Source of the DNA: a plasmid
DNA: 64,000 nucleotides
Reading direction: 5' to 3' (one strand)
Sequence record: NZ_CP028351.1
Part shown: piece after piece, positions 7,013 to 46,894 of the stretch
Layout of the letters: each line of letters opens with the position of its first letter
How positions within the stretch are numbered: position 1 is the first letter of the stretch
Made by a program: the position numbers and the translations under genes
Notes under the pieces: model-generated
The model's input: the letters and a program-made list of their open reading frames with translations, nothing else
Told to the model about the DNA's origin: nothing
The model's database searches: none

Positions 7013-7066
7013 GAGCTTTACTTTCCCTGAAGTGAAAAATTGCCATCAGGTCTTATCCGCAGAGGC

Positions 7067-8029
7067 TTAATGCTGGATGTTAGCCAGATCGTCTGAGGAA
7101 AGACCTGTCATTTCCATGATGGTTTTACGTTCAAGGCCGCGCTGTAACATAACGCGAGCGATTTCCAGAGTGGCTTCGCGCTTACCTTCACTGCGGCCTT
7201 TCTCCATTCCACGCTGTTCGCCCAGCTCAATACCTTCAGCGCGGCCTTTTTCTATACCTTTTGCGATACCTTTTTGCTCAAGCTGCTGTGCAATAGTCAT
7301 CAGTGCATCTCCGTGTTGCGGCACCCGCTGTGCCAGTTCGCGAACGAAAGCTTCGTGATCAGCTGATTCACCTGCCTGCATTAAATAGTGTATCAGCGCC
7401 AATACCTGGGGTGAAGAAAGATAATCGGCCATCAGTAAGGTACTCAGACGGTCAATGATCGAAGCCATATCACGTTGATGAATATGCTTCTGCATCAGTG
7501 TCAGTGCGGCCATGCTACGGTGCTTCATGATTTCGTCATCAGGAATAACCGTGACGTCCACCAGCGGAAAAGCACTTCCATAGAGTTGTTCTGCCACAGC
7601 CGGATCATCAAATTCGTCGAACCAGCGGGTCGAATAAGGATAGGGCGAGCGCTTACCGGTGTAGAACAATACAGGTATCACCAGAGGCAGCTTTTTATGA
7701 CCCGCTGCAAGATGCTGTTGCATAGCGGCAATCGCATAACGCATCAGACGAAACGCCATATGCCTGTCCGGTGTAGATTGATGTTCAATCAGAACGTGTA
7801 TGTAGCCGTCCCCGGCTGAGGTTTTAAGACTGTACAGAACATCACTAAAATATTGCCGCAAATCGTCTTCGACAAAGGAGCCGGATTCAAGCTTAAGTGT
7901 GCCGAGATCGCAGATTTTACGCAGTTCTTCAGGAAGATGCAGCTGCATAAAATCTCTGGCAACATCCGGATTTGCCAGAAACTGTCGGAATGTCGCGTCA
8001 TGGGGAACAGGGCTTTTTTTCTTTCTCAT
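7067..8029 (-). CDS. Rpn family recombination-promoting nuclease / putative transposase (YhgA-like, PD-(D/E)XK)
   Basis: N-terminus PHDATFRQFL..ARDF is characteristic of Rpn/transposase_31 proteins. The C-terminus is a Lys/Glu-rich repeated tail. Start assigned to MRKKK. Confidence 0.75.
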   Translation of the reverse strand: MRKKKSPVPHDATFRQFLANPDVARDFMQLHLPEELRKICDLGTLKLESGSFVEDDLRQYFSDVLYSLKTSAGDGYIHVLIEHQSTPDRHMAFRLMRYAIAAMQQHLAAGHKKLPLVIPVLFYTGKRSPYPYSTRWFDEFDDPAVAEQLYGSAFPLVDVTVIPDDEIMKHRSMAALTLMQKHIHQRDMASIIDRLSTLLMADYLSSPQVLALIHYLMQAGESADHEAFVRELAQRVPQHGDALMTIAQQLEQKGIAKGIEKGRAEGIELGEQRGMEKGRSEGKREATLEIARVMLQRGLERKTIMEMTGLSSDDLANIQH

Positions 8030-8544
8030 CGGTTTACTTTCTATAAGGTTCACATACTGACAGCTCAAGGAAAAGTGGTTTATCCAGGCCGGACGGCAAT
8101 ATTATCGTTGTGTTATCTGTGAATTAAAATGGCCTACGCCCATGATGAATTAACTGAAATTCTTAAAAGTAAAACCAATGCATTAAAAATAAGCCACCCC
8201 TTAATATAAAAAATAAATATCGTTACAAATCAGCAGGATGAGCACTGATGAACTGAAAAAAACCATGATTCCCCACATCCACCAACAAGATTAAAACCGG
8301 AATAAATAAGAGATAATGAATTATAAAAAAACGATCATTGCCTGAATCACCTGTTTTTTTCAGCATGATTTACCAATGATAAAACGGCTCAGTTTAAATT
8401 TATAAACCACGCCTGTTAATTAGCAGCATTACATTCACTAGCAAGGTATTTCTATTTCCTGCCAGCCGCTATATCAGCATTGATTTATTCGGTAACAGAA
8501 TGACTTAATAACTGTAAGCGCTGCAGTGAATATTATTCATGTCC

Positions 8545-30837: not shown

Positions 30838-31407
30838 TCACGGGTTGATCCATCCGCTTTCCTGCCGTTCCCCATGGGCAGAATAGTAAAACAGTGCGCG
30901 CTGATTATCATTGCGCTGAAGCTGATACGCATCCAGCATGCTGACCTGCACAATCACCACGCCAAAACGCGATTCGCCCGTTTCTGCTGTCGACGCGTCC
31001 GGTAGCTCATGAGCGGGAGCCTGCGCTTCTCCCGGCGGCCCGCCGATGTACGTCTGGCGCGTGTGCTGGGGTAACGTGCGCCAGGCGTCATGGGCAACAG
31101 CACTTCCCGCTGCATAACATTCAGCCTGTCCCACCAGCCGGAGCTGCAGGCGACGCTCATGGCAATATCCCAGCACGGTAACCTGGGGGTTCGCTGCCAT
31201 CTCCAGCCACTTCGGACTACGCACATCGGTATGAAAGGTCAGCATCCGGCGAACGTCATGGCACTCGCGCAGGACCACCGTGCGTGCCTGAGGCTGTTGT
31301 GCAGCATCCGCGGTAGCGAGTGTCAGATAACGAAATCCGGCCTGCGGATCGGCGGCAGCCTCTGCCAGTGCTGCCCAGCTGGCTGTTTCAAAGCTTTTCA
31401 GATCCAT
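30838..31407 (-). CDS. Pyridoxamine 5'-phosphate oxidase-family (FMN-binding split-barrel) protein
   Basis: PNPOx-like sequence signature (..FRYLTLATADAAQQPQARTVVLRE..); 189 aa. Confidence 0.6.
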   Translation of the reverse strand: MDLKSFETASWAALAEAAADPQAGFRYLTLATADAAQQPQARTVVLRECHDVRRMLTFHTDVRSPKWLEMAANPQVTVLGYCHERRLQLRLVGQAECYAAGSAVAHDAWRTLPQHTRQTYIGGPPGEAQAPAHELPDASTAETGESRFGVVIVQVSMLDAYQLQRNDNQRALFYYSAHGERQESGWINP

Positions 31408-31661
31408 TGGAAATTACTCTCATCAGGGACAATGTCAGCCATCTGGCTAAAAGCGTAGCAATGATGTGAGCAGATGGCCTGTCCGCTCTGCTCTGGCAGG
31501 AAAATATGACCCGCGACTCGCCGCGCAATACCGCGGAAGAGTAAGACAGCCGCGTGATTGCGGAACGCCTCGCAAAGTCGCGAACGCGCGTCCCGCCAGT
31601 CTGCCGCTCTGTGCTATTTTTGCGCCATCACCTTACCGTTTTGTCCGCAGGGAATGGCACT

Positions 31662-32246
31662 ATGTCTGATGAGAAACCCGCTGAAGTCCGGCCAGAAGTG
31701 CCCGTTAAAGTCACCTCGCCGCGCCTGACCTATCGGCCACTGAGTCAGGAAGACTGGCCTTTTTATCTTGCGGTCAGTCAGGACAGATCGGTGATGAATT
31801 ACATCAGCGATCCGCGCAGCGCTGAAGAGATCCGAACCCGGTCATTCGACGTGCGCCTGCCAGCCTGGTACAAAGGCTGCACACACTGGCTGTGCCTGGT
31901 CATTGAGGAAAAAGCGACGGGTCTTCCGGCTGGCTTCTGCGGGTTTATCGATCGCGGAGAGGGCATTGCGGAATTTGGTTTTATTCTGGCTGCCCACGCA
32001 CAGAGCAAAGGCTACGGCAGCGAGTCGCTGCATGCCACTATCGCCATCTGCTTTGAGCAACAGGGTTACCGCAAAATGACCGCAACGGTGACGGCAGGCA
32101 ATGTCGCCTCGCGCCGCACGCTGATCTCCGCGGGCTTTATTCAGGAAGGCACTCTGCGGCAGAATTTCTTCCTCGATGGCCAGTGGCAGGATGACTGGAT
32201 TTTCGGATTGCTGAAACAGGATTACCGACCCGGACAGCTAGACTGA
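31662..32246 (+). CDS. GNAT family N-acetyltransferase
   Basis: GNAT motif A region (AHAQSKGYGSESLHATI) and C-terminal motif B. Internal ATG at 31662 chosen as start. Confidence 0.7.
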   Translation: MSDEKPAEVRPEVPVKVTSPRLTYRPLSQEDWPFYLAVSQDRSVMNYISDPRSAEEIRTRSFDVRLPAWYKGCTHWLCLVIEEKATGLPAGFCGFIDRGEGIAEFGFILAAHAQSKGYGSESLHATIAICFEQQGYRKMTATVTAGNVASRRTLISAGFIQEGTLRQNFFLDGQWQDDWIFGLLKQDYRPGQLD

Positions 32247-32291
32247 CGGGCGTCGATAGCCCCCTCTCTTCGGCTGTCAGGGTCAGAATGT

Positions 32292-34421
32292 TCAGGGGGA
32301 TGTGACATCGTAACCGCTGGCAACAGCGGGCACAGAATGCTCCTCGCCGTACAGCATCGCTTCAAAGTCCGCCGGTGTCAGTGGCCGGCACAGGCCATTG
32401 CCCTGCATAATGTGACATCCGGCTGACGTGACAAAGGCGATCTGCTCTTTGTCTTCAACCCCTTCAGCAGCCACCCGAATACCCAGACTTTTGCCGAGTG
32501 CGGTGATAGATCGGAACATCATTCGCACCCGCATGCTGGAGTTCAGCTCGTGCGTCAGCGACTTGTCGATTTTGAAACCTGCCACAAAGCTGTGGCGCAG
32601 CAGATTAATGGCCCCCAGCGTGCGTCCGTAATGATCGATGACAAATGAGGCACCGGTCCGGCGCACCGCTTCAACCTGAACCGGCATATCCTGCACCAGC
32701 ACAGCCAGCAGAGGCTCATCCACTTCCAGCTCAACAAAACCCGCATCGCCGCCGGCACTCTCGCGTATAACGTTTTCCAGGCTGTTCCCTGTCAGCTGAC
32801 GCGGAAACAGATTGATGCTGACACGAAGCTCAGGCGATCGCACCTGCCACTGCCGGACCTGTGCCAGAGCACTGCGGATAATCCATTCCCCCAGCGTTAC
32901 GGAAAGCGGGCTTTTAACCAGCATGCTGATGAAGTCGGCAGGCAACAGCAATCCGCGTGTCGGATGCTGCCAGCGTACCAGCGTCTCGCAGCCAGCCAGT
33001 TTTCCGCTTTCCACGTCGAAGCGGGGCTGATAGTAAAGTGTGAACTGCTGCTGCCGCACCGCCGTTTCCAGTTCGCGTTCAAAACGGCGGCGCTGCTGCT
33101 CCGCTTCACGAAACGCAGGCATAAACAGGATACTGCAGCCTTTGCCTGAGGCTTTGGCACGGTAGAGTGCCAGATCAGCAGCGGACATCACCGCAGAGGG
33201 ATCGCGACCGTGCTCCGGGTAGGAAGCGATGCCGGTACTGGCACCAACCACAACCGGCGAGTCGTGGTAGCGGAACGGCGTCTGTACGGCTGCAATCAGT
33301 TTTTCCGCCGTAATCGCTGCCTCAGCGCTGCCGCCCGCCAGCAGGATCACAAATTCATCACCGCCCAGCCGCGCAGCAGTCACGGCACCGGCACACACTG
33401 CACGAATCTGCTCGGCCACGTGACACAGCAGCGCATCGCCAGCTGCATGTCCCAGCGTATCGTTCACCTCTTTAAAACCATCGAGATCGGTCATCAGTAA
33501 CGTATAGGGAACACCCGCTTTGGTCAGCTGCCCCACCTGATGCATGAACGCGCTACGGCTGGCGAGTCGTGTCAGCATATCCAGAGAAGCCAGCTCACAG
33601 AGCCGCGCCTCACTTTCATAGCGGGCTGTAACGTCGCGGATGATCATGCCCACCAGCCGCTCGCCCTCTTCACGCCAGCCCGAAAATGAGACTTCTGCCG
33701 GGAATTCACGGCCGTCACGCGTGACGCCCCATATCTGCAACGAACGAGGATGAGAGATAGCTGCTTCGTCTGAGGTAATCCGGGCCAGCTCGTTACGGTA
33801 GTCAGTCTGGCAGCGCGCCGGGATCAGCTCGCTGACATACTGACCTCTCATCTCCTCTGCGCTGTAGCCGAAGAGAGCAGTGGCGGCCGGATTCCAGAAG
33901 GTGATGCCGCGCCGCAGGTCGGTACAGACAATGGCGTCGGGTGAGGTGGATGAGATTGCCTGAAGACGCTGCTGACTGGTGTAGCGCAGTAACTCCAGAC
34001 GATGCATCTCCATGCGATCCATCACCAGCGCGGCAATATCGGTCAGATGCGTCCGATCCTCTGCAGTCAGCGGCTCGCGCGGATGACTGTCGGTCAGGCA
34101 GACGGTGCCAATGTGATGACCATCCGGCGTCGAGAGCGGGATCCCGGCATAAAAGCGGATAAAGGGGTAGCCATGAACCAGCGGACTGTCGCGGAAGCGG
34201 GGATCTTTCAGCGTATCGGGCACACACAGGATATCGCCCTGCGCCAGCGTATGGTGGCAGAAGGCGACGTTGCGCGACGTACCGGAAATGTTCAGACCGT
34301 AACGGGAAGCGAAAAACTGTCGCTTCTCATCGATTAGCGATACAAAAGCCACCGGTACGCGGAACAGTCGCGCAGCAAGCGTGGTAAGGCGATCCAGCGC
34401 ATCGGTCGGCGGTGAATCCAT
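32292..34421 (-). CDS. GAF-PAS-GGDEF-EAL c-di-GMP signalling protein (EAL metal-binding motif degenerate)
   Basis: N-terminal GAF (..YPFIRFYAGIPL), a PAS domain, an intact GGDEF (RLGGDEFVILL), and an EAL domain with ETLVRW in which DHYGRTLGA replaces DDFGTGYSS. Confidence 0.85.
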   Translation of the reverse strand: MDSPPTDALDRLTTLAARLFRVPVAFVSLIDEKRQFFASRYGLNISGTSRNVAFCHHTLAQGDILCVPDTLKDPRFRDSPLVHGYPFIRFYAGIPLSTPDGHHIGTVCLTDSHPREPLTAEDRTHLTDIAALVMDRMEMHRLELLRYTSQQRLQAISSTSPDAIVCTDLRRGITFWNPAATALFGYSAEEMRGQYVSELIPARCQTDYRNELARITSDEAAISHPRSLQIWGVTRDGREFPAEVSFSGWREEGERLVGMIIRDVTARYESEARLCELASLDMLTRLASRSAFMHQVGQLTKAGVPYTLLMTDLDGFKEVNDTLGHAAGDALLCHVAEQIRAVCAGAVTAARLGGDEFVILLAGGSAEAAITAEKLIAAVQTPFRYHDSPVVVGASTGIASYPEHGRDPSAVMSAADLALYRAKASGKGCSILFMPAFREAEQQRRRFERELETAVRQQQFTLYYQPRFDVESGKLAGCETLVRWQHPTRGLLLPADFISMLVKSPLSVTLGEWIIRSALAQVRQWQVRSPELRVSINLFPRQLTGNSLENVIRESAGGDAGFVELEVDEPLLAVLVQDMPVQVEAVRRTGASFVIDHYGRTLGAINLLRHSFVAGFKIDKSLTHELNSSMRVRMMFRSITALGKSLGIRVAAEGVEDKEQIAFVTSAGCHIMQGNGLCRPLTPADFEAMLYGEEHSVPAVASGYDVTSP

Positions 34422-34847
34422 CAGATGATACTGCTTAAGTGCATCAAGGCGAGCCGCCTCGGCATCATGATAAACTGGGCGTTTCAGCGTAAATCCCCTC
34501 TGATGTTATCTGCTGTGGCCGGCATGACGCAGCATGAAGAGGACACGTTCAATCAGACAGGACGCGCAGAACTGGCTGCCGACCCGCTACCGGAAGAAAG
34601 GCCCGTCAGTGAACTCTGCAACAATAACCAGCTGCAACGAGTCCGATAATACCGGCATCGCAGACAGCGGGATGCCGGTTAATACGTTATGCCGGGCAGT
34701 GCGGTCGTGACGGTTCGGCGGTTAATAGCGGACCATGCCAGGACAATCCTGCCAGAGCAGATAAGATGCGCGAATTAATGCGCTTCGCTTAGCTCTTTAT
34801 ATCGGCCTGAAATACGTTAACTTCAGGGGAAAAAGCGGCAGAACGCC

Positions 34848-35087
34848 TTACTTTTTAAGCTTTGGAACCAGTTCGTAGTGCGGATGCTCTCCCGCCAGCA
34901 GCATCAGCAGTTCATATTCTCCCTGGCTGAGCAGCGCAGGGTTTTTGGATGCTTCTTTGGTCTGCCAGACGCGCTGGCTAAGGTCGAAACGTTCGGCTGC
35001 AATCTCCTGCGAAAGACCCGCCGCAAGGCGCAGCTCACGTACGTTATGCTGGACGGCAACCGGCCGCTGTAAAATCTGATTTCCCAT
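34848..35087 (-). CDS. XRE-family HTH protein (antitoxin/MqsA-C-terminal-like), solitary
   Basis: HTH (NVRELRLAAGLSQEIAAERFDLSQRVWQ) followed by ..NPALLSQGEYELLMLLAGEHPHYEL. Start assigned to MGNQIL. Confidence 0.5.
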   Translation of the reverse strand: MGNQILQRPVAVQHNVRELRLAAGLSQEIAAERFDLSQRVWQTKEASKNPALLSQGEYELLMLLAGEHPHYELVPKLKK

Positions 35088-35435
35088 ATGAAACGCTCCG
35101 CATACGGTGCCCCGGTGAGATGGCCGGACAATCGAATCCGCTGTGGCCAACACATAAATTTGAGTTAAGTTTTAAATGCGCAGCGATCCGTAATCGTCAG
35201 GAAAGCGTAAAGCTCAGGTAAAACCACAGAGATTAACTGTAATTATATTTAATTCGTGAACCGGATAATTATTGCACCGCTGAGAATAACCCTCGCCCTT
35301 CTGAATAGTGATTATGATCAGGTAATGATTAACATTCATCACTGTCTGAAAAAGATGACTTTTTTCATCCAGAAATAAAAGAGAGTGAATATTAACCATT
35401 ATTTTACTTTACAGATCTGTTATCTGCAGATGAAT

Positions 35436-35465
35436 AAAATAGCCGGTCAGGCTATGCCTGACCGG
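35436..35465 (-). terminator. Rho-independent terminator after the MCP gene
   Basis: CCGGTCAGG-ctatg-CCTGACCGG stem with a T-rich tail on the minus strand. Confidence 0.5.
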
Positions 35466-35502
35466 AACCCACACGGCCACGTGTGTCTAATCCATGCAAA
35501 TG

Positions 35503-36885
35503 TCAGTTCACTATCCCGACAACCTGCGGTGGCAGGGTGAAGCGGGTAATAACGCTGCCCAGCGTTTCAGTCTGTCCGCTAAGGCTGCCTGCCGTTGCCG
35601 AAACCTGCTGGACCAGCGTCGCGTTCTGCTGCGTAACGCGGTCAAGTTCAGCCACCGCCACGGTGACCTGGGCAATCCCTTTGCTCTGCTCATCCGAGGC
35701 CAGCGCAATCTGTCCAATCAGCTCATTGACGCCGCCGACACCGCGCAGCACGGCTTCCATAGTCGTTCCGGCACTCTCTGCCGCCCGCCGGCCATCATCC
35801 ACGCGTGCCACGGTATCGGCTATCAGCTCTTCGATCTCTCTGGAGGCCGCAGCACTTCGCTGGGCCAGTGAACGTACCTCACTGGCAACCACCGCGAAAC
35901 CGCGGCCCTGCTCGCCCGCACGCGCGGCTTCTACGGCGGCGTTGAGCGCCAGAATATTGGTCTGAAATGCGATGCCATTGATGGTGGCGGTGAACTGCCG
36001 GATTTTCTCTGATCCCTGCGCGATGCTGGTGATGGCTGCCGACACCCGCTGAACCAGCTCCACGCCCTGATGGGTCGTATTCGTGGTGCTGGCGGCCAGT
36101 TCACGCGCTTCACGGGCATTCTGTGCATTATGACGCACGGTAACCGTGATCTCTTCCATGCTGGCGGCGGTCTGCTCCAGCGCAGCGGCCTGAGTGGAGG
36201 TCCGGTCAGAGAGATCGGCGTTACCTGCTGCGATGTCGCCAGCCTCACGATGAAGAATGGCTGCGTTGTCGTGAATAGCGCTAACCGTCTGCAACAGACT
36301 GTGCTGCATCTCTTTAACCAGCGGCACCAGCTGCCCGACGCAGTTGCGACCCAGATCTTCCGGCTCGCGCGTCAGGTCACCTCCGGCAATAATTTTTAAA
36401 TGCCCGCGGATTTTACCCACCGGACGCACCAGATGGACGACCAGATAGCGGTCGCAAAACAGCAGCAACGCGAAGGCTGCCAGCAGTGCCGCCAGCAGTA
36501 TGCGCTCGAGCTGACGCCGGTCGGCGTTAAGAACGGCCTGATTTTGCGCCAGCTGCTGCGTCACGCTATCCAGCTTCGCACGGGTAACCGTTGCATACTC
36601 TGAGGGTGAGGTCGTAAGTGCTGCGCGAAAGCTATCCCAGTCAGCACTGGCCGGGGTTAAGGCGACCAGGGCGTTTTTGTCTGCGTCTGTTCCACCCTGC
36701 ATAACAAGAGCGCTGTGCGTAAGAAAACTCAGTTGCTGCGTCAGAACAGCTGAGCGATCGGTCTGACGATAAATATCCCGCACAATCTGACTGCTGTAGC
36801 CACCTGCCAGCGCGACCACGCCCAGTGAGACGATCATTATCCACAGCACAACGCGGCGAATAGTGAAATGCCTGAGTGAGTTCAT
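35503..36885 (-). CDS. Methyl-accepting chemotaxis protein (4-helix-bundle sensor, HAMP, MA domain)
   Basis: Highly conserved MCP signalling domain (..[33 protein letters not shown]..) and two TM segments. ATG at 36885 preferred; the ORF track's TTG at 36930 is unlikely. Confidence 0.85.
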
Positions 36886-37232
36886 GAGGTTTTCCCCGAT
36901 GTTGTCATTGGTGTAGTTAAAATCAAACAAAAATAAGTTATGTCATCTACTTTAATGCGTTATTATATAGTGCACTATGTTTGTGCTTACTATCCTGGCA
37001 GGGTATTCCAGAAATTAAAAGTTTTTAGCGACAAAATAATAGAATCGTCATTCATAAAATATTTCGTTAAAGAAAAAGGATTTGCTATTCTGCTCAGGAC
37101 TGGCAGGCAATGTAATAAAAAATAAATCGTCATGGCTCTTTCTTTTTACAGAAATAGACTGTAGTCATGACGCTATAACCTTCAATTTTTCTGTTTAGTT
37201 TCGCTCCGTAACCAGCCGGCGCGGAGGAATCC

Positions 37233-39014
37233 ATGCTTATGAGCCTTAGCGGCGGCGACGATTGCCGTACGCGAACCCTGCACGCGCTGCGCAGTAACGA
37301 CGAGAGTCGTGACGATGTGTTGCGACAGTTCGTCCGGCTGGCCAGCCAGGCCATTGGCATTCCCGGCAGCTTTATCTCCGTTCTGGATGATGAGATGCAG
37401 CACGTCAAAGCGGCGCACAATTTCACACTGACTCAATCCACGCGACAGGACTCGCTCTGCCGGCACGCCGTGGACAGTGACAGTACAGTAGTGGTGCCCG
37501 ATACTCTGCTGGATAGCCGTTTTGCTGCCCATAAGCTGATTACAGGCGCGCCTTTTATCCGTTTCTATGCTGGCGTGCCGCTTAAAAGCAGTACCGGTCT
37601 GATTCTCGGTACACTCTGCGTGACCGACACGGCACCTCATCGCTTCAGTGACGATCAGGTGGCGATGCTGAAAATGCTGGCCGCGCTGGTGATGTCTTTT
37701 CTTGACGCCTGGTACTCGGCTGGCTTTGCCGACCCGGTAACCGGCCTGCCCAATCGTCAGCGTCTGATCCGCGACCTGCAGTTCCTTGCCGCCTCCGGAG
37801 ACACCACGCCACGGCGGCTGGTGCTGATTGACTGTATCAATATGCCGCGTGCTTACGAGCTGGCGCGCTCAATGGGCATGGGGCCGGTTGAAAGTCTGCT
37901 GAAGGATGTGGCAACACTGCTGCCGCTGCGTCTGCGCCCAGCCCCGGGAGAAATGCTTTACACCGTAGCAACCGGACGCTTTGCCCTGCTGACACGGCAG
38001 GAGAGCAGACTCACTGCCAGCTGGGTGGCCAATAAGCTGGCCGGGATCAGCGCCGATCTGGGTGATGGGCTATCGGTTGCGCTGATGACCCACACCGGTG
38101 AGGCAAGTTTCAACACGGGTGAGATGCCTGCCCAGGAGATCCTGCGGCGTGCAGTCAGCGCGTTGCACGAAGCCATTACCCGCAACGTTGCCTCAATGCC
38201 GTTCAGTGAAGCCACTGATACGCGCCATACCCAGGATTTCACCCTGATGCATGACCTGGCCACTGCTATACGCCAGGATAAAGGGTTATGGCTCGCCTGG
38301 CAGCCGAAAATCTGCCTTCACAGCGGTAAGCCGATAGGACTGGAAGCGCTGATCCGCTGGCAGCATCCGCAGCGCGGCGAGCTTTCACCTGCGCAGTTTT
38401 TGCCCGTTGCCGGGCAAACCCAACTGCTTACAGAGCTGACCGCCTGGGTCACAGAGCACGCCATCGCCCGTTTGTCCCGTCTTCGCGACAGCTATATTCA
38501 GCTGCCCATCACCATTAACGTCAGCAGCAGCGATTTTTCCCGTGACGGTTTTGCTGACGAACTGGAAGAACAGATGCTAAGAGCGAAGCTGCCGGTTTCA
38601 CTGCTGGGCATTGAGTGTCTGGAAACAGAACGGATTCTGGAAAGCCCCACCGCGATGCAGGGGCTTGAGATGCTGAAGCTACGGGGATTTGGTATTTCAC
38701 TGGATGACTTCGGGACCGGCTACAGTAACATCAGTTATCTGCGGCGCATGCCGCTGGATGTGATCAAGCTGGACCGCTCACTGATCAGTGAAATTTCGTC
38801 TGACACCGCATCGCGCGTCATTGCCCGCAGTATCATTGCGATGCTCAAGGACCTTGATTACATGGTGCTGGCTGAAGGCGTTGAGAATGCGGAAACCGTT
38901 ACGGCGCTGACCGAGTTCGGCTGCGACCAGGCTCAGGGATTTTTCTACTCCAGGCCGCTGCCAGAAGCGGCGCTGGATGAGTGGCTCGGCTGGCGATTAC
39001 GCAGTAAGTGCTGA
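37233..39014 (+). CDS. GAF / degenerate-GGDEF / EAL c-di-GMP phosphodiesterase
   Basis: GAF N-terminus. The middle domain has no GG[DE]EF motif. The EAL is intact (EALIRWQHP, DDFGTGYSNISYL, KLDRSLI, EGVE, QGF). Confidence 0.85.
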   Translation: MLMSLSGGDDCRTRTLHALRSNDESRDDVLRQFVRLASQAIGIPGSFISVLDDEMQHVKAAHNFTLTQSTRQDSLCRHAVDSDSTVVVPDTLLDSRFAAHKLITGAPFIRFYAGVPLKSSTGLILGTLCVTDTAPHRFSDDQVAMLKMLAALVMSFLDAWYSAGFADPVTGLPNRQRLIRDLQFLAASGDTTPRRLVLIDCINMPRAYELARSMGMGPVESLLKDVATLLPLRLRPAPGEMLYTVATGRFALLTRQESRLTASWVANKLAGISADLGDGLSVALMTHTGEASFNTGEMPAQEILRRAVSALHEAITRNVASMPFSEATDTRHTQDFTLMHDLATAIRQDKGLWLAWQPKICLHSGKPIGLEALIRWQHPQRGELSPAQFLPVAGQTQLLTELTAWVTEHAIARLSRLRDSYIQLPITINVSSSDFSRDGFADELEEQMLRAKLPVSLLGIECLETERILESPTAMQGLEMLKLRGFGISLDDFGTGYSNISYLRRMPLDVIKLDRSLISEISSDTASRVIARSIIAMLKDLDYMVLAEGVENAETVTALTEFGCDQAQGFFYSRPLPEAALDEWLGWRLRSKC

Positions 39015-39038
39015 TTCTGTCTTCCCTGCCCCGTAATC

Positions 39039-40622
39039 TTATCTGGCAGACTCAGGCGTACTGAATCCGTCCGGCCCGGCAATGATAACCGTATTGCGCC
39101 CGGCCGCTTTCGCCTCATAAAGCGCTTCATCCGCCCGGCGCAACAGCGCATCGCGATCGCGACTCTGGTCATCCCGTGAAGCCACGCCTGCTGATATGGT
39201 CATCGTACCGGCGAACGGGAAGGTGGTGGCGCAGACGGTCTCGCGGATGCGTTCCGCGGTGCGGGCAGCATCGGCCAGCGTCGTGTCCGGCAGCAGCAGT
39301 ATAAACTCCTCGCCACCAAACCGGCTGACGATATCGCCGGTTCGGCAGGCCTGACGCAGCAACGCCGCCAGGCTCACCAGGACCGCATCGCCCGCGTCAT
39401 GCCCATACCAGTCATTGATCTTCTTGAAATGGTCAATATCAATCGCGATGATACACTGTTCATGCTCACTGTCTGCCTGCGCCGCCAGCGCCGAAAATCC
39501 GCGACGGTTGCAGAGCCCGGTCAGCGGATCGGTCATTGCTTCATCGTTAAGCGCAGCCAGATGGCCTGCCACGGCATGGCGATGCGCCTGCACCGCTTCT
39601 TTGAGCCGGTCAGCCTCGTAATACCAGGTTTTGACAGTGGCGAGTGACTCCGCCTGTGCTTCGCTGCCGCCATCCCGCACTCTGTCCGCCAGCTTTTCCA
39701 GTGGCGAAGCGATCCGTCCAGCCATAAAAGCAATCACGCCAGCCGTTACGAGAATAATGCCCAGAACGAACCAGATGGCGCTTTCTGCCGTGCGCAGCAG
39801 AATATGCCTGACCGTTTCAGAGGTGCCGGTAATAAACACATTCCAGCCGGTTTTATGCAGCGTGCCATAGCCGGTCAGAAAGTTTTGCCCCCCATTTTCC
39901 AGGGTAAAATGTCCACTTTCCGTAGTGGACAGACGCTTCTGCAGAGCCAGGCTCAGCAGCATCTTCGTTCCGACGAGCGCCGGATCATGACTGAAAATAA
40001 TCAGCCCCTCATTGCTGACCACGCTGACCGTCGAGCCTTTGGTATAAAAATGCTGGCTAAGGATCTCACTCAGCATGCTCTGTTTTTTAAGATAAATGGT
40101 GCCGCCGATATAGCCCAGATAGCCCCCTTCTTCGCTGAACAGCGGCTGAGATAAAAACACCACATAGTTTCCGGCGGCAGAGGTAAAGGGCGCTGAGATA
40201 AAGGGCTTACGGGTGGCAATAGCCTGCAGACTGGCTGCTGAGTGAAGTTTCATGCCTGTCAGATTCAGGCTATCCGGTGAGGTTGCCGCAATAATGGCAT
40301 CGTGGTTAACCACCACCACCGAGTTGAAAAAGCCTGACTGCATGCGCAGACGATCGGCCTCTGCTTTTAGCTGTTTCAGATCGCTAAGGCCCTTGATCTG
40401 CGATGCACTCCAGGCCAGTTCCCGTTGTGCTGTTGTCAGGTAACGATCAGTGGTATCGGCCAGTTTGCGGGCATAGGCAATGTTTCCTTCAAGCAGGCTG
40501 TCTTCAATATTAGCCTTCTGAAACAGTAGCAGCGCACTCAGCAGCAGACCCGAGGTCAGAATGACGCCCCCAATGGAAAGCAGAGTCAGCAGCGAACGAA
40601 GGCGCATTTTTTCATGGAACAT
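39039..40622 (-). CDS. Diguanylate cyclase with periplasmic double-Cache sensor (dCache-TM-GGDEF)
   Basis: Signal/TM segment, a Cache-like periplasmic region and a C-terminal GGDEF with an active RFGGEEFILLL motif. Convergent with the PDE gene. Confidence 0.85.
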   Translation of the reverse strand: MFHEKMRLRSLLTLLSIGGVILTSGLLLSALLLFQKANIEDSLLEGNIAYARKLADTTDRYLTTAQRELAWSASQIKGLSDLKQLKAEADRLRMQSGFFNSVVVVNHDAIIAATSPDSLNLTGMKLHSAASLQAIATRKPFISAPFTSAAGNYVVFLSQPLFSEEGGYLGYIGGTIYLKKQSMLSEILSQHFYTKGSTVSVVSNEGLIIFSHDPALVGTKMLLSLALQKRLSTTESGHFTLENGGQNFLTGYGTLHKTGWNVFITGTSETVRHILLRTAESAIWFVLGIILVTAGVIAFMAGRIASPLEKLADRVRDGGSEAQAESLATVKTWYYEADRLKEAVQAHRHAVAGHLAALNDEAMTDPLTGLCNRRGFSALAAQADSEHEQCIIAIDIDHFKKINDWYGHDAGDAVLVSLAALLRQACRTGDIVSRFGGEEFILLLPDTTLADAARTAERIRETVCATTFPFAGTMTISAGVASRDDQSRDRDALLRRADEALYEAKAAGRNTVIIAGPDGFSTPESAR

Positions 40623-41699: not shown

Positions 41700-42611
41700 A
41701 TGCTGAATTATATGGTATCGCTCTACCGTACTGTGCCTGTCTCATCTGAATGTCTCAGCGACTGGCTTACCCGCTGGCTGGCGCAGCAGCAGGCCCGGTG
41801 CCATGATCATCACTTCTCCGCCGCCTTTCCCTGGCGTGAAACCAGCCTGCCCCAGCACACGTTTTTGCAGCGCGAACTGACGATTAACGGCCAGCGTTTT
41901 CTCACCGGCCCGCGCTATCTGGGGGGCGACCCCGCTCAGCCTTTTATTGAAATCGTGGCCCGTGATGGCGCACTGGATTACGCAGCCGCAGCCGCCATCA
42001 TGCGTGAGTGGCAAACGATCAGGCCGCTGAAGATGCGTATTCTGCTGCCGGCCACGGATCCTGATATTGGTATAACCGATCAGCTGATTTACCTCAGCGT
42101 TCCAGGCTTACACTCCGCGTCTCACGACGATGAGATTTCGCTGATTACGGCCTGTCGGAAAGATTATGCCCTCTGTAGCTCCGCCATTAACCGCGCTTAT
42201 CATGCCAGCTGGCACACGCTGCCGCATCTGCGGGATCAGTTGCTGGCCACCAGCAGGCAGGAATTACGAGACGATATTGCCGGGGGGCATGTGTTTCTGA
42301 TCCTCTGGCAGGGCATGGTGGCGGGGCTGATGATTTGTGTGCCGCGACGACTGGCCTTTATTGAAGGATTTCAGATCATGGATGAGGTGATTTTGCCGGC
42401 GTATCAGGGCCGTGGACTCGCTGCACGCGCTCAGCAGCGTTTGCTGCAGCAGCTTCACCATTACTGCGGTCATGATGCGATGCTGACCGGCACCATTCTG
42501 CCCGGCAATACGCCGTCTCTGCGAAGCGCGCAAAATGCCGGACGGCGCTGCGTGCTGAAATATCACTTTTTTACCCCCGCTGATTTACGGGCGGAGCGCC
42601 GGGCCATTTAA
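41700..42611 (+). CDS. Two-domain protein with C-terminal GNAT acetyltransferase fold; N-terminal ~180 aa of unknown function
   Basis: C-terminal ..ILPAYQGRGLAARAQQRLLQQ.. resembles the GNAT motif A region; the N-terminal part has no recognised signature. Confidence 0.5.
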   Translation: MLNYMVSLYRTVPVSSECLSDWLTRWLAQQQARCHDHHFSAAFPWRETSLPQHTFLQRELTINGQRFLTGPRYLGGDPAQPFIEIVARDGALDYAAAAAIMREWQTIRPLKMRILLPATDPDIGITDQLIYLSVPGLHSASHDDEISLITACRKDYALCSSAINRAYHASWHTLPHLRDQLLATSRQELRDDIAGGHVFLILWQGMVAGLMICVPRRLAFIEGFQIMDEVILPAYQGRGLAARAQQRLLQQLHHYCGHDAMLTGTILPGNTPSLRSAQNAGRRCVLKYHFFTPADLRAERRAI

Positions 42612-42858: not shown

Positions 42859-43086
42859 ATCTGCCTATTTTTGCTGCTAAAAATGATGAAACCGGCGGCA
42901 CGTATTATACCGATTATCCGACAGGCATGACGGCTTACTGTGCGCATAACCCGGCATGCATCGCAGAAGCTTTATAGCCTTGCAGAGATGACCTGCAGGG
43001 CGCGGCTTCGCTCGCAAAATTCCGCCAGCTGTTCTTAACTCAAAATCAGTGATTTTGTGCCACTGAGAGAACTATCGGAGGACGTT

Positions 43087-43620
43087 TTGACGACAACATC
43101 TCTGACTACCGCCAGTGACAATACCCTCACGCTACGGCGCTGGATTACTGTGGGCCTGCCCGCTACCGAGCTTTTTAACCTGTGGCTTGAGCCCGATACC
43201 CTGCCCCGCATTATGAGCCACTTTGCCAGCGTGACGCCGGTCAATAAAAGCGATGCACACTGGCAGATTGAGGGCCCACTGGGTAAGCACTACCGCTGGG
43301 ATACCCGCATTGTCGAAGCGCAGCCAGGCGAAGTGATTGCCTGGCGCTCGCTTGAGGATGCAGACATTCCTAACGAAGGTGAACTGCGCCTTCGCCCGGC
43401 GCCGGGGGAATGGGGCACCGAGCTGGCTCTGACTCTGCAGTTCACGCCGCCGGGTGGCGCACTGGGAAAAAAGGTAACGACGTTATTTGATCTGCTGCCA
43501 AAAGAGGTGGCCAGCAAAGCGTTACATCGCTTTAAAAGCCTGGCTGAAACCGGTGAAATTCCTACCCTGAACGGGCAGCCTGCGGGTCGTCATGCCGGAC
43601 GTCAGGATAAGGAGAAATAA
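43087..43620 (+). CDS. SRPBCC (polyketide cyclase/dehydrase-like) family protein
   Basis: START/Bet v1-like sequence (..WQIEGPLGKHYRWDTRIVEAQPGEVIAW..). TTG start preceded by a perfect GGAGGA RBS; its stop abuts the ADH ATG (TAAATG). Confidence 0.6.
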   Translation: MTTTSLTTASDNTLTLRRWITVGLPATELFNLWLEPDTLPRIMSHFASVTPVNKSDAHWQIEGPLGKHYRWDTRIVEAQPGEVIAWRSLEDADIPNEGELRLRPAPGEWGTELALTLQFTPPGGALGKKVTTLFDLLPKEVASKALHRFKSLAETGEIPTLNGQPAGRHAGRQDKEK

Positions 43621-44787
43621 ATGCGCGCACTCTGCTGGAATGGCGTCAACGATTTAAGTGTTGAAACCGTAGCCGACCCCGGTCTGCTCAATCCTCATGA
43701 TGCCATTATTCGCGTCAGGCTCACCACCACCTGCGGCTCCGATCTGCACGTCATTGACGGCCTGATCCCGAGTATGCGTGAAGGCGATATTCTGGGTCAT
43801 GAATTCATGGGTGAGGTAGTTGAAGTTGGCCGTGCGATAAAAAATATCCGGCGTGGCGATCGGGTCGTAGTGCCCTCTTTCATCTCCTGTGGTTCCTGCT
43901 GGTATTGCCAGCATCAGTTGCCCTCCTGCTGTGACAATACGCATCCGCAGTGGGAGAAAGGTGAAACAGTGCTCGGTCATGCCACGGGCGGCATTTACGC
44001 TTACAGCCACGCGTTTGGCGGTTATGCAGGCTCACACGCAGAGTATGTTCGTGTGCCCTTTGCCGACAATGATTGCTTCGTCGTGCCCGAAGGCGTAATC
44101 GATGAGCAGGCGCTGTTCCTCTCCGATGCGACGCCGACCGGTTATATGGGTGCCGACTTCTGTAATATTCATCCCGGTGACACCGTGGTGGTCTGGGGCT
44201 GTGGCGGTGTCGGACTGATGGCACAGCAAAGCGCCTGGCTGATGGGCGCGCATCAGGTCATCGGTATCGATCGCTATCCTGAACGGCTGGCCATGGCACG
44301 CGACTTCGCAGGCAGCATAACGCTGGATTACACCGAGGTGGACGTCAACGAAGCGCTGCTGGAGTTAACCGGCGGGCGCGGCCCGGACAGCTGTATTGAT
44401 GCTGTCGGCATGGAAGCCCGCGGTGAAGGATTAAGTCAGGTCTATGACAAGACCAAACAGATGCTGCATCTGGAAACGGATGTCGGTGCAGCCTTGCGCC
44501 AGGCGTTATATGCCTGCCGTAAAGGCGGCAACATCGCGATTCTGGGGGTATATGGCGTGATGGATAAGTTCCCGCTGGGGCTGATGATTAATAAAAGCCT
44601 GACCATCCGTACCGCCCAGCAGCACGGGCAACGCTACATGCATCGTCTGCTGGAGCATGTTGCCAGAAATGAGCTGAACCCGGCTTTTATGGCGACACAT
44701 CGTTTTCCACTGGAAGAGGCCCCGCGAGGCTATGAGATGTTTAAACACAAAGAAGATGGCTGCGTTCGCGCCGTGTTCGTGCCCTGA
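43621..44787 (+). CDS. Zn-dependent alcohol dehydrogenase (glutathione-independent formaldehyde-dehydrogenase-like)
   Basis: Catalytic and structural Zn ligands (C38..H60.., the CGSCWYC structural-zinc cluster) and GxGxxG (GCGGVG) present. Confidence 0.85.
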   Translation: MRALCWNGVNDLSVETVADPGLLNPHDAIIRVRLTTTCGSDLHVIDGLIPSMREGDILGHEFMGEVVEVGRAIKNIRRGDRVVVPSFISCGSCWYCQHQLPSCCDNTHPQWEKGETVLGHATGGIYAYSHAFGGYAGSHAEYVRVPFADNDCFVVPEGVIDEQALFLSDATPTGYMGADFCNIHPGDTVVVWGCGGVGLMAQQSAWLMGAHQVIGIDRYPERLAMARDFAGSITLDYTEVDVNEALLELTGGRGPDSCIDAVGMEARGEGLSQVYDKTKQMLHLETDVGAALRQALYACRKGGNIAILGVYGVMDKFPLGLMINKSLTIRTAQQHGQRYMHRLLEHVARNELNPAFMATHRFPLEEAPRGYEMFKHKEDGCVRAVFVP

Positions 44788-45107
44788 AAACACATAAACC
44801 GATTCGGGCGGCGCTGCCGCCCGGCGGGACCTTTCCTGAATTCTGGCAAAAATCCCACTTATTCCCGGACGCTGAAACACTGATGATAAGCGCCTGTCAC
44901 CGTAAAGCTGAACCTGAATTAACCCGCCATAATTCCATGTTGATATGAATTTTTATGAACGTAAAGTGAAAAAAACACATCAGAATCAGATCCCTGTAAA
45001 CGCTAAGCAGACACCTCTGCCTGTTCACATTTTGAAAACAAAATAATCACAATAAGTTATTTTTTCATGTGTAAATTAGTGCCAATTTTCATTTATGGAG
45101 CAGGCCA

Positions 45108-45653
45108 ATGACGCAATATGTGGCAGTTTTTCTCTCTTCACTGTTCATGTGCAGCAACGTTTTCGCAGGTTCGGTTTCTTCCGTATCACTCGACGCGCTT
45201 TCCACCGCATTAAATGAACGCATGCAGGTCATGAAGGCTGTGGCGGGTTATAAAGCGCAGCATCATTTACCCGTTGAGGATCTGCCTCGTGAGCAGGTTG
45301 TTCTGGAAAAGATGCTGCATAACGCGCAGCAGGCAGGACTTGAACCTCAATCGGTGGAGCCTTTTGTCCATGCTCTGATGAACGTCAGCAAAGCGATTCA
45401 GTATCGCTATCGGGCTGACTGGCTTTCAGCACCGGAAAGTGACGTACCCGTCACCGATCTGGCCGGGACCCGGCAGCAGATTGAACAGCTGGATACCCAG
45501 CTCCTGGCTGCGATCAGCCAGCGCCTGATGACCGGCAGCTTCTCGCAGGAGGACAAAGCGTTTCTGATGTCACAGCTCACGGCACCCCACCTCAGCGAAA
45601 GTGATAAAAACAACCTTTTCGCTTCTCTCGCCCGCATTCAGCGCTCGCATTAA
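45108..45653 (+). CDS. aroQ: Secreted (periplasmic) chorismate mutase, AroQ class
   Basis: Cleavable signal peptide (MTQYVAVFLSSLFMCSNVFAG) followed by an AroQ helical domain, matching the periplasmic *AroQ known from Erwinia/Pantoea and Salmonella. Confidence 0.75.
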   Translation: MTQYVAVFLSSLFMCSNVFAGSVSSVSLDALSTALNERMQVMKAVAGYKAQHHLPVEDLPREQVVLEKMLHNAQQAGLEPQSVEPFVHALMNVSKAIQYRYRADWLSAPESDVPVTDLAGTRQQIEQLDTQLLAAISQRLMTGSFSQEDKAFLMSQLTAPHLSESDKNNLFASLARIQRSH

Positions 45654-45675
45654 TCCTTAAGCCGTGGAGTGAGCT

Positions 45676-46866
45676 ATGCAGCTTCATGAACTGATGAACC
45701 CCGAATACACTGACAATCCGTTTCCCCTTTATCGGAAACTGCATCGGCAGGGCCCGCTTATTCCTGCCGGGGATAAGATCATCATCAGCGGGAGTCACGC
45801 GGTGGTGGAGACACTGCTGAACGATCGGCGGGTCGGCAAGAATTATATGGAAAGTGTCAGGCTAAGATTTGGAGATGCCGCAGCCGACATGCCGCTGTTT
45901 CAGGGCATCAGCAGAATGTTTCTGGTGCTGAATCCGCCGGATCATAACCGATTAAGAGGACTGGTTATGAAGGCATTCAGCGCCCGGGAAATTAAACCAC
46001 TCCGGGAGATGGCGCTGAGTGTCGCTCATGACCTGGTTGATGCGCTGGCAGGTCATCGCGACTGCGATCTGGCCCAGGCATTCGCCTTTCCGTTACCGGT
46101 ACGCATTATCTGCGGGATGCTGGATCTTGCTGAGTCTGACGCGCCTGAACTGGGTCGGCTCACATCTGTACTGGTCAAAGTGTTCGACCCGCAAATCAGC
46201 CAGTCGGATCTACTGGAAGCCGCCGATGCGTTTGCCGTACTGGAGCGTTACTTCAGCGCAATGATCGTCGCCCGGCGTGACAGCACGGCCAGCGATCTGG
46301 TGTCCCTTTTTCTGCGCAGCAGCAGCGATGGCGACCGGCTAAGTCACGATGAGATCATCGCCAATGTGATACTGCTGTTTATTGCCGGCCATGAGACCAC
46401 CTCAAATATGCTCTGCAATACTCTCCTGGCTCTGCATGACCATCCGCAGGAACTGGCTTGCCTGAAACAGAATCATGCACTGATACCTGATGCCATAGCG
46501 GAGTGTCTGCGTTACGACAGTTCGGTCCAGATGCTGTACCGCACGACGCTGAAAGAAATTGAGGTGGCAGGCCAGCTCATTCCGCCAGGAACACGCTTTT
46601 TTCTGAGTCTGGGCGCAGCCAATCACGACCCGCTTGTCTTTACCTCGCCGGAGCGGGTCAATATCCGGCGACATGAGGGACGCAGCCTGGCATTTGGTGG
46701 CGGGATACATCACTGTATGGGCTACCGGCTGGCACTGGCGGAAATGGAGGTGGCGCTAGAGGTATTGCTGACCCGACTGCCAGCAATGCGACCGGTAACC
46801 GCCGGGGTTCGCCGCAATCACAGAGCCAACCTGCGTGGTGTCAGCGCCCTGCCGGTCAAGTGGTGA
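45676..46866 (+). CDS. Cytochrome P450 monooxygenase (class I bacterial type)
   Basis: Heme-thiolate loop FGGGIHHCMGYRLA, an EXXR motif (ECLRYD) and I-helix AGHETT. It begins 22 nt after the chorismate mutase stop. Confidence 0.85.
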   Translation: MQLHELMNPEYTDNPFPLYRKLHRQGPLIPAGDKIIISGSHAVVETLLNDRRVGKNYMESVRLRFGDAAADMPLFQGISRMFLVLNPPDHNRLRGLVMKAFSAREIKPLREMALSVAHDLVDALAGHRDCDLAQAFAFPLPVRIICGMLDLAESDAPELGRLTSVLVKVFDPQISQSDLLEAADAFAVLERYFSAMIVARRDSTASDLVSLFLRSSSDGDRLSHDEIIANVILLFIAGHETTSNMLCNTLLALHDHPQELACLKQNHALIPDAIAECLRYDSSVQMLYRTTLKEIEVAGQLIPPGTRFFLSLGAANHDPLVFTSPERVNIRRHEGRSLAFGGGIHHCMGYRLALAEMEVALEVLLTRLPAMRPVTAGVRRNHRANLRGVSALPVKW

Positions 46867-46894
46867 AACCGCCGGGGCCAGAAGCGCCCGGCGA

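Follow-up and report, generated by a model that had tools for sequence, protein, structure and literature searches.

Chorismate mutases (CMs) of the AroQ-gamma class are represented by CM-F/AroQ of Erwinia herbicola, *AroQ of Salmonella and Pseudomonas, the Yersinia pestis enzyme YpCM (2gbb) and *MtCM (2fp2). The type was first described in E. herbicola in 1993, and to our knowledge the question of what these exported enzymes do biologically goes back to that year. The E. herbicola orthologue is reportedly a periplasmic chorismate mutase, activity and location having been shown by Xia et al. 1993, and is said in the same work to be cleaved after 20 residues. The searchable literature yields nothing under STM1269, which we take to be the locus tag of Salmonella aroQ. 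A study of exported AroQ-gamma CMs describes their role as unresolved, uses gene neighbourhoods to guess at it and deals with a hypothetical periplasmic Phe pathway (PMC10520331). The fusions of an exported CM with cyclohexadienyl dehydratase reported there resemble the present case in that an exported-type AroQ-gamma enzyme has a genetic neighbourhood from which its role is being guessed; unlike them, the CM described here has no PheC/CDT domain or gene beside it, and its partner gene encodes a predicted cytoplasmic P450. A P450 as neighbour of a CM is absent from that study ('P450' occurs 0 times), and the searchable literature yields nothing on a CM-P450 pairing or on the P450 or CM of pPag1.

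CYP133 reportedly has more members than any other P450 family in Gammaproteobacteria (PMC7998510), with CYP133B1 of Xylella fastidiosa and CYP133D1 of Musicola/Dickeya Ech703 as named members. Its genes are typically solitary, and the searchable literature contains nothing on the function of the family and no member with a known substrate. The best solved-structure matches to the P450 described here are class I P450s of CYP107 type (CYP107P2, 8yhn; BioI, 3ejb; PikC; Vdh), which align over the full length at 3e-64 to 1e-53. Enzymes of this type belong to biosynthetic clusters or have terpenoids, macrolides or acyl-ACP as substrates.

The DNA analysed here (the window, 64,000 nucleotides of sequence record NZ_CP028351.1) is a Pantoea vagans plasmid of the pPag1 type, to which a collinear reference plasmid is 98% identical. 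It carries one gene of each kind in what is probably an ancestral two-gene aroQ(gamma)-cyp133D operon, encoding a predicted exported CM and a cytoplasmic P450 that would be joined by shared regulation and inheritance, with no obligate pathway, and that have been reciprocally lost in relatives. The features of the locus are as follows.

43003..44916, plus strand: SRPBCC-Zn-ADH module, outside the operon, an insertion ahead of the aroQ promoter that varies on its own (presence/absence comparison)
43057..43620, plus strand: SRPBCC gene
43621..44787, plus strand: Zn-ADH gene
44917..45107, plus strand: AT-rich 5' regulatory region of aroQ, conserved even in plasmids without SRPBCC-ADH
45024..46893: proposed extent of the aroQ-cyp133D operon, CM gene followed by P450 gene
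45024..45084, plus strand: candidate conserved promoter/operator block, TTCACATTTTGAAAACAAAATAATCACA-ataa-GTTATTTTTTCATGTGTAAATTAGTGCCA (cross-genus conservation)
45108..45653, plus strand: aroQ, encoding the 181-aa precursor of a chorismate mutase of AroQ-gamma (periplasmic/secreted) type (profile matches, structure alignment)
45108..45167, plus strand: predicted 20-codon signal peptide for Sec export, with the cut after VFA (read from the sequence by eye)
45654..45675, plus strand: intercistronic spacer of 22 nt with the P450's own Shine-Dalgarno (sequence and paired-locus comparison)
45676..46866, plus strand: cyp133D-type cytochrome P450, 396 aa, soluble, without signal peptide or fused reductase (profile and orthologue comparison)
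46693..46725, plus strand: heme-thiolate loop FGGGIHHCMGY, residues 340-350, with Cys347 (sequence and 12 orthologues)
46870..46893, no strand assigned: GC-rich inverted repeat, possible bidirectional terminator without a clear U-tract (fold energy)

The ORFs, motifs, gap, AT-rich region and neighbours described in an earlier note on this DNA were all found where it had placed them; its interpretations fared less evenly and are taken up below.

The aroQ product is a predicted periplasmic/secreted chorismate mutase of the AroQ-gamma class, sharing with the known members the 181-residue length class, the signal peptide and an AroQ core with a C-terminal extension. It matches Pfam CM_2 (PF01817) at 2.2e-20 and 73 bits (cutoff 27) and passes the NCBIfam equivalog cutoffs of NF005965 (236 bits, cutoff 179) and TIGR01806, 'gamma subclass chorismate mutase AroQ' (135.5 bits, cutoff 74). 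The best PDB match is 2gbb, the secreted CM of Y. pestis (6.8e-28); the extension is evident from the Pfam domain covering residues 31-99 only while residues 34-177 align with 2gbb residues 9-153. Residues R38, K49, D58, R61, S94, Q98 and R122 align with active-site positions of the secreted M. tuberculosis enzyme (*MtCM, 2fp2), where Arg, Lys, Asp, Arg, Ser/Thr, Gln/Glu and Arg presumably have catalytic roles. Among 11 CM orthologues R38, K49, R61, Q98 and R122 are invariant, D58 is nearly so, and S94 varies; the catalytic Arg, Lys and Gln positions are conserved with the known AroQ-gamma enzymes. The Sec signal peptide claimed earlier is upheld as a prediction made by eye: the N-terminus, MTQYVAVFLSSLFMCSNVFA followed after the cleavage point by GSV, has a hydrophobic core, small residues at -3 and -1 and a VFA cleavage motif, with no basic residue in the n-region. 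The signal and cleavage motif are kept in orthologues, and the solved mature Y. pestis CM can be aligned only from residue 34 on, downstream of the predicted peptide. The gene is under purifying selection (dN/dS = 0.10-0.26), and its product is 86-87% identical to the plasmid copy of P. agglomerans (= E. herbicola). The protein itself is not substantively different from known AroQ-gamma CMs. What is new concerns its gene: the location on a plasmid, the first place in a probable operon with a P450, and the conserved operator-like block ahead of it.

The downstream product matches Pfam p450 (PF00067) at 4.5e-33 and 115 bits (cutoff 22.8) and contains a P450 domain only. The canonical heme loop noted earlier was found together with the other heme motifs: F340, G341, G343, I344, H345, H346, C347 and G349 of the loop, the I-helix AGHETT (237-242) and the EXXR motif ECLR (276-279) are invariant among 12 orthologues. 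No signal sequence of any kind is present at the N-terminus. Under CYP nomenclature, identity above 40% defines a family and above 55% a subfamily. The P450 of the window shares 68% identity with the protein of Musicola paradisiaca Ech703 (L084), whose N-terminus matches the entry 'CYP133D1 (Dd703_1892)' in the supplement of PMC7998510, and on this identity it is assigned to CYP133, subfamily D. It is about 51% identical to CYP133 members of Ralstonia and Xanthomonas, one of which is labelled Cyp133B by a source, and its dN/dS is 0.06-0.13. The CM-paired P450s all group in a single sub-clade. Horizontal movement of CYP133D genes is clear from sequences that are 89-92% identical across three enterobacterial families.

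Like other CYP133 members, the window P450 has the family's length and invariant heme loop and no adjacent ferredoxin; unlike them, it follows aroQ in a probable operon. The earlier remark that no ferredoxin or reductase lies nearby was borne out on a larger scale, as no ORF with a ferredoxin motif occurs in the whole 64-kb window and no redox partner is annotated in the collinear segment of the reference plasmid. A survey of recurrent neighbours at 80 genome loci with CYP133 relatives turned up neither a ferredoxin nor any other universal partner; its sole signal was synteny among closely related alphaproteobacteria. None of the NCBIfam equivalogs attains its cutoff, the top score being 158 bits where 343 bits are required. 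The structure matches place the protein among CYP107-like folds, with which it would share a soluble three-component architecture; it differs from the CYP107-type enzymes in belonging to CYP133 and in lacking a biosynthetic-cluster context. As its substrate, a small compound of lipophilic or aromatic nature encountered in plant habitats is the most plausible.

The two genes lie on the same strand, separated by a short gap with no internal terminator, and their adjacency is conserved across divergent genomes. The CM stop codon TAA (45651-45653) and the P450 ATG (45676) enclose the 22-nt spacer, in which the Shine-Dalgarno GGAG (45666-45669) stands 6 nt ahead of the ATG; no promoter signal was detected between the genes. 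Across paired loci the spacer is 19, 22, 25 or 28 nt long, and the Shine-Dalgarno alone is conserved. This GGAG is present in every lineage, including Musicola, in which the P450 is the first gene. RNA folds of the junction were no more stable than those of shuffled sequences (z = +0.38, -0.24, +1.31 and +0.21) and are not conserved. A GCUCGC/GUGAGC hairpin that would occlude the Shine-Dalgarno, spotted by eye, was rejected: its folds do not surpass those of shuffles and show no conservation at loci L089, L092 and L097. Translational coupling, as formerly proposed, is thus unsupported, given the P450's own Shine-Dalgarno in every lineage, the 22-nt gap and the lack of a conserved occluding structure.

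The region ahead of aroQ has a GC content of 33% (44900-45099), against about 55% in the flanks, and its reading as a promoter region gains from a conserved candidate promoter/operator block of about 60 nt, with three ACA-containing repeats at 11-bp spacing. The block is near-invariant in Pantoea, Symbiopectobacterium, a metagenome contig (L092) and Lelliottia, and occurs also in Kosakonia oryzendophytica (z=5.4). In Musicola it stands about 77 nt ahead of a lone P450, and in Erwinia psidii ahead of a CM pseudogene followed by an intact P450. It contains a weak sigma-70-like match (TTCACA-18-CACAAT); a promoter scan of the aroQ upstream region gave a match no better than shuffled controls. The P450 genes of Dickeya, Kosakonia and Ewingella have a different upstream region, so that enterobacterial CYP133D genes may not all derive from the operon.

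Several regulatory candidates for this region were considered and set aside. A riboswitch or leader RNA was rejected, as the block and leader gave no credible Rfam match and a consensus fold of just -2.7 kcal/mol. A TyrR box was rejected, none of the 17 matches in the window falling within 44788..45107 and their count not exceeding that of shuffles. For an OmpR box, the verified upstream sequence of E. coli ompC was used for comparison; similarity to the block was significant in E. psidii only (18-nt exact match, 1/500 shuffles) and not in the window, Musicola or Lelliottia, so that it is a weak lead at most. An element common to the region upstream of the Ewingella CM and to those upstream of the Dickeya, Kosakonia and Ewingella P450s was rejected because z did not exceed 2.3 (z <= 2.3).

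The pair occurs in three unrelated contexts: on Pantoea plasmids, on a Symbiopectobacterium chromosome with IS elements on both sides, and on the metagenome contig L092, where a GntR gene flanks it on one side and an aminotransferase gene on the other. It is present in 21 of the 33 informative Pantoea-type metagenome loci. The pair thus recurs in related replicons with a gap of 19-28 nt, and judged from this distribution it is not a chance juxtaposition. The description of the arrangement as rare in Enterobacterales stands for the order as a whole; within the P. agglomerans/vagans group the gene is common, 53 plasmids in PLSDB matching the locus, with CM and P450 both annotated in all 30 of the matches listed. 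Between the same genome pairs the dS of the CM is similar to that of the P450, and the pair persists at dS > 1 with dN/dS of about 0.1 for both genes.

Each gene has also been lost alone. Three P450 remnants (L105, L114 and L134), all with different deletion boundaries, adjoin full-length CM genes, which points to at least three independent P450 deletions in Pantoea plasmids; the CM is still under purifying selection where the P450 has been lost. The converse is seen in E. psidii, whose CM remnant is frameshifted and contains stop codons with the P450 downstream intact, and in Musicola, where the CM has been excised and the P450 kept behind the same block. A P450 without an adjacent CM is found in these two and in Dickeya, Kosakonia, Ralstonia and Xanthomonas, and a CM standing alone in Salmonella, Lelliottia and Kosakonia oryzendophytica; from the CM-only Lelliottia, Kosakonia and Salmonella the P450 may have been absent from the start. 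These patterns indicate an operon ancestral within plant- and insect-associated Enterobacterales that then underwent reciprocal decay. Since relatives have repeatedly lost either CM or P450, the genes appear co-regulated and not mutually dependent, and the link between them would therefore be one of shared regulation and shared inheritance, not of an obligate two-step pathway. Both genes would be transcribed from the conserved block at 45024..45084 under a regulator. The CM would be exported by Sec, cleaved after Ala20 and convert chorismate to prephenate in the periplasm, while the P450, translated independently from its own Shine-Dalgarno, would stay in the cytoplasm and, as a class-I-type enzyme, have to borrow a housekeeping ferredoxin or flavodoxin and a reductase. 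The long persistence of the pair under purifying selection at dS > 1 could also reflect a real interaction in function where both are kept. A putative role in plant interaction would fit the host range.

The earlier note had correctly identified the genes upstream as GNAT-like, SRPBCC and Zn-ADH, and had suggested that with the CM and P450 they could make up a small aromatic-metabolite tailoring locus. All these genes do lie on the same strand within 5 kb, and the one-base overlap of SRPBCC and ADH suggests a sub-operon of their own. However, all four combinations of SRPBCC-ADH and P450 occur on one replicon family with the CM constant: both are present in the window, P450 alone in P. agglomerans CHTF15, SRPBCC-ADH alone in P. 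anthophila and neither in P. deleyi. Homology to the CHTF15 plasmid (L097), which lacks SRPBCC-ADH, resumes at 44917. The 320-nt gap between ADH and CM holds the conserved aroQ promoter block, an 81-aa ORF lies in opposite orientation between the GNAT and SRPBCC genes, and GNAT, SRPBCC and ADH are all absent beside the pair in Symbiopectobacterium and L092. With SRPBCC-ADH behaving as an indel of its own, the tailoring locus lacks support; the presence/absence pattern largely refutes it, and we consider it very improbable. Another alternative is that a mobile P450 landed by accident behind aroQ and hitch-hikes on its promoter, without any biologically meaningful shared regulation. The solitary state of both genes in most lineages, the horizontal mobility of CYP133D and the frequent deletion of the P450 would all agree with such an accident, which we nevertheless consider improbable, given that the pair endures at the divergence noted above with both genes constrained, that it occupies three unrelated genomic contexts, and that the P450 kept the aroQ promoter block after loss of the CM, acquiring no other.

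A single route across the membrane has more to recommend it than either of these and is still unlikely. The periplasmic CM would act on plant or leaked chorismate to give prephenate, then phenylpyruvate or something similar; after import, this product would be converted by the P450 to a hydroxylated aromatic of relevance in plant interaction. The operon is under purifying selection in several lineages, the pair moves as a unit between genomic contexts, its hosts are almost all plant-associated, and the role of the exported CM is still debated (PMC10520331). The predicted compartments differ, however, and no transporter is linked; the CM continues under purifying selection after P450 loss, Musicola, E. 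psidii, Dickeya, Kosakonia, Ralstonia and Xanthomonas retain the P450 in the absence of the CM, and no known P450 family for prephenate-derived substrates matches above cutoff. A direct pathway from prephenate to the P450, as first suggested, is unsupported in view of the predicted export of the CM, the lack of a signal peptide on the P450 and the loss of each gene without the other. More speculatively, and with little probability, the locus may form a two-compartment device directed at plant chemistry derived from chorismate, in which the exported CM drains or converts apoplastic chorismate, the co-induced cytoplasmic CYP133D oxidises either the product taken up or a plant phenolic related to it, and the operator with 11-bp repeats defines a new host-responsive regulon. 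If true, periplasmic AroQ-gamma enzymes of plant-associated enterics would gain their first physiological role, and CYP133 its first substrate.

Under the preferred reading, a co-regulated operon with reciprocal loss, the locus offers a conserved operon partner as a handle on both exported AroQ-gamma CMs and CYP133, and the operator-like block offers one for finding the regulator and the inducing condition. Plasmids deleted for the P450 and genomes deleted for the CM are natural isogenic-like variants usable for comparative phenotyping. The reciprocal loss also warns against equating operon adjacency with pathway coupling.

Downstream, the 28 nt that separate the P450 from the convergent scrR contain the inverted repeat 46870..46893, whose fold (-24.7 kcal/mol, z=-2.7) was equalled in stability by 1 of 200 shuffles; a consensus terminator scan did not call it. 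The CM and P450 are both routinely annotated genes. P450 censuses that scan chromosomes only undercount Pantoea; the P450 of the window was missed by that of PMC7998510 because only the C9-1 chromosome was scanned.

The two genes were delimited from the ORF listing and the raw sequence and lie on the same strand:

45108..45653, plus strand, aroQ, chorismate mutase (CM) ORF, 181 aa
45676..46866, plus strand, cyp133D, cytochrome P450 ORF, 396 aa

The 22-nt spacer between them contains GGAG 6 nt ahead of the P450 ATG. The two-gene observation of the earlier note, comprising both ORFs, this gap and the family matches, was confirmed. Of its interpretation, the CM-P450 pairing stood, but translational coupling and a joint tailoring locus with the GNAT, SRPBCC and ADH genes did not. 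The window is collinear with plasmid pPag1 of Pantoea vagans C9-1 at ~98% identity. GC content is 33% across the 200 nt preceding CM, and upstream of CM lie genes for a Zn-ADH and an SRPBCC protein, a small reverse-strand ORF and a gene for a GNAT-like protein. The scrR-scrB-scrA-scrY-scrK sucrose regulon is convergent and downstream of P450; the 28-nt spacer between P450 and scrR is occupied by a GC-rich hairpin (46870..46893; -24.7 kcal/mol, z=-2.7), which lacks a U-tract and could terminate transcription in both directions. The claimed absence of redox partners near P450 was borne out, no ferredoxin or reductase gene being found in the 64-kb window or in the annotated segment of the reference plasmid. 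Identical proteins are public as AVV39922.1 (chorismate mutase) and AVV39923.1 (cytochrome P450), annotated with no more than these names, and neither CM nor P450 is new as a gene.

CM matches Pfam CM_2, passes the NCBIfam equivalog cutoffs of NF005965 (236 bits, cutoff 179) and TIGR01806 (135.5 bits, cutoff 74), and is assigned by its sequence to the AroQ-gamma (periplasmic/secreted) subclass. Among solved structures it is closest to 2gbb, the secreted enzyme of Yersinia pestis (6.8e-28); second comes *MtCM of M. tuberculosis, with whose active site R38, K49, D58, R61, S94, Q98 and R122 align. Among 11 CM orthologues, R38, K49, R61, Q98 and R122 are invariant, D58 is nearly so and S94 is variable. 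Residues 1-20, MTQYVAVFLSSLFMCSNVFA, precede all sequence alignable to the mature structures and look like a Sec signal peptide. The protein is an orthologue of Erwinia herbicola CM-F/AroQ, reportedly described in 1993 as a periplasmic chorismate mutase.

The second ORF, which matches PF00067, is predicted to encode a soluble P450 that is complete. FGGGIHHCMGY (Cys347), ECLR and AGHETT are all present and invariant across orthologues; the sequence has neither a signal peptide nor a fused reductase. Its scores against NCBIfam functional models all fall far short of the cutoffs, and CYP107-like enzymes are the nearest solved structures. The protein is a CYP133D member, 68% identical to CYP133D1 as named in a census in which CYP133 is the most numerous P450 family in Gammaproteobacteria (PMC7998510). 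That census scored P. vagans C9-1 at 0 P450s from the chromosome CP002206 alone (PMC7998510 supplement), and plasmid-borne P450s such as 45676..46866 are therefore undercounted. The searchable literature yielded no study on the function of a CYP133 member.

The adjacency of the two genes is more than chance, as it recurs in Pantoea plasmids, in Symbiopectobacterium purcellii and in an unrelated metagenome contig (L092). PLSDB contains 53 Pantoea plasmids that match the region; among the matches listed, 30 of 30 have both genes annotated. Metagenome loci were collected by a scan with the CM alignment; P450 lies directly downstream of CM in 21 of the 33 informative Pantoea-type loci. The S. purcellii proteins are 62-64% (CM) and 76% (P450) identical to those of the window, with a 19-nt gap, while in L092 the pair, with a 25-nt gap, sits between a GntR gene and an aminotransferase gene. 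Within the same genome pairs dS is alike for both genes (e.g. 0.58 vs 0.63, 0.85 vs 0.94, 1.33 vs 1.24), and both are under purifying selection (dN/dS 0.06-0.13 for P450, 0.10-0.26 for CM). Every paired P450 falls inside a single sub-clade of the enterobacterial CYP133D tree. Several IS/transposase genes lie on each side of the S. purcellii pair (L089 319-6069 and 8468-10663), which would fit the two genes having been mobilised together as a cassette. In Ewingella (L091 2998-8191) CM and P450 are on the same strand 3.4 kb apart, with a DUF2254 gene and an unrelated Zn-ADH gene between them, a layout that is either intermediate or the result of disruption.

When the upstream regions were aligned, a ~60-nt block stood out at 45024..45084, TTCACATTTTGAAAACAAAATAATCACA...GTTATTTTTTCATGTGTAAATTAGTGCCA, near-invariant in Pantoea, Symbiopectobacterium, L092, and CM-only Lelliottia and Kosakonia oryzendophytica. 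Neither an Rfam match nor a consensus RNA structure was obtained for the block, which therefore most probably acts at the DNA level, as a promoter/operator. In Musicola paradisiaca its 18-nt core is exact ~77 nt ahead of the ATG of a lone P450, the CM ORF having been excised. Erwinia psidii has the block ahead of a decayed CM and an intact P450, in that order; what is left of CM is part of the signal peptide, FLSSRLMCTDAFAGSV, and a stretch that is frameshifted and contains an in-frame stop. The E. psidii copy (L090 6421-6438) shares an exact 18-nt match, TGTATTTACATTTTGAAA, with E. coli ompC, at the beginning of its regulatory region (L181), presumably the OmpR C1 site. The match to the ompC upstream region is poorer for the blocks of other lineages, which leaves control by OmpR as a weak lead only.

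Loss of P450 is also frequent. It is wholly absent from nine further Pantoea-type loci and from P. deleyi and P. anthophila plasmids, and three Pantoea-type loci with full-length CM retain remnants whose deletion boundaries differ:

L105, P450 deletion, lacking window 45833-46799
L114, P450 deletion, lacking window 45792-46787
L134, P450 remnant, codons 22-218 alone retained

Read most simply, these loci descend from a promoter-aroQ-cyp133D operon that has repeatedly lost one gene or the other. The pair, of ordinary and known enzyme types, appears to be a real and old but dispensable operon. The stand-alone CYP133D genes of Dickeya (L082), Kosakonia MUSA4 (L086) and Ewingella, at 7001-8191 in each locus, are 89-92% identical across three enterobacterial families and have ~230 nt of upstream sequence in common, which indicates recent horizontal transfer of a promoter-plus-P450 unit between families.

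Translational coupling is not supported. The P450 has its Shine-Dalgarno sequence inside the spacer, this sequence is conserved even in lineages where P450 comes first, and junction folds are neither more stable than shuffles nor conserved. An obligate two-step pathway is likewise disfavoured, because purifying selection on CM persists in plasmids that lost P450, P450 is kept where CM decayed or was excised, the predicted compartments differ (CM exported, P450 cytoplasmic), and the more distant CYP133 genes of Dickeya, Kosakonia, Ralstonia, Xanthomonas and Paraburkholderia are solitary, with unrelated neighbours. These observations argue for a tie by common regulation and inheritance. A facultative metabolic link in the lineages retaining both genes appears unlikely.

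The joint tailoring locus fails on gene content. GNAT, SRPBCC and ADH genes are all absent beside the pair in Symbiopectobacterium and L092, and the SRPBCC-ADH module varies independently of P450, all four combinations of presence and absence being observed on one replicon family:

~43003..44916, SRPBCC-ADH module, an independent indel
43057..43620, SRPBCC gene
43621..44787, Zn-ADH gene

The module ADH is 95-99% identical in plasmids where the flanking CM is 70-80% and the GNAT-like gene 66-72% identical, a contrast that points to unusually strong constraint or to a recent recombinational spread. The GNAT-like ORF (41700..42611, 303 aa) is intact in the window and is represented by two CDSs (hypothetical protein and GNAT) in pPag1 (L001 10700-11612), the C9-1 reference probably being frameshifted.

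No report of the operon arrangement, the conserved operator-like block or the reciprocal decay was found in the searchable literature, and a study probing the role of exported CMs through gene neighbourhoods does not mention a P450 neighbour (PMC10520331). The main value of the operon is as a lead to the roles of AroQ-gamma enzymes and CYP133 P450s.

Genes of c-di-GMP turnover are clustered just upstream of the locus (window ~31000..40622; L001 1283-9615). A sensor diguanylate cyclase is encoded on the minus strand at 39039..40622, and the cluster further includes genes for an EAL and a GGDEF+EAL protein. Also on the collinear stretch of the plasmid are a budA-alsS-diacetyl reductase acetoin operon and a flagellin gene.
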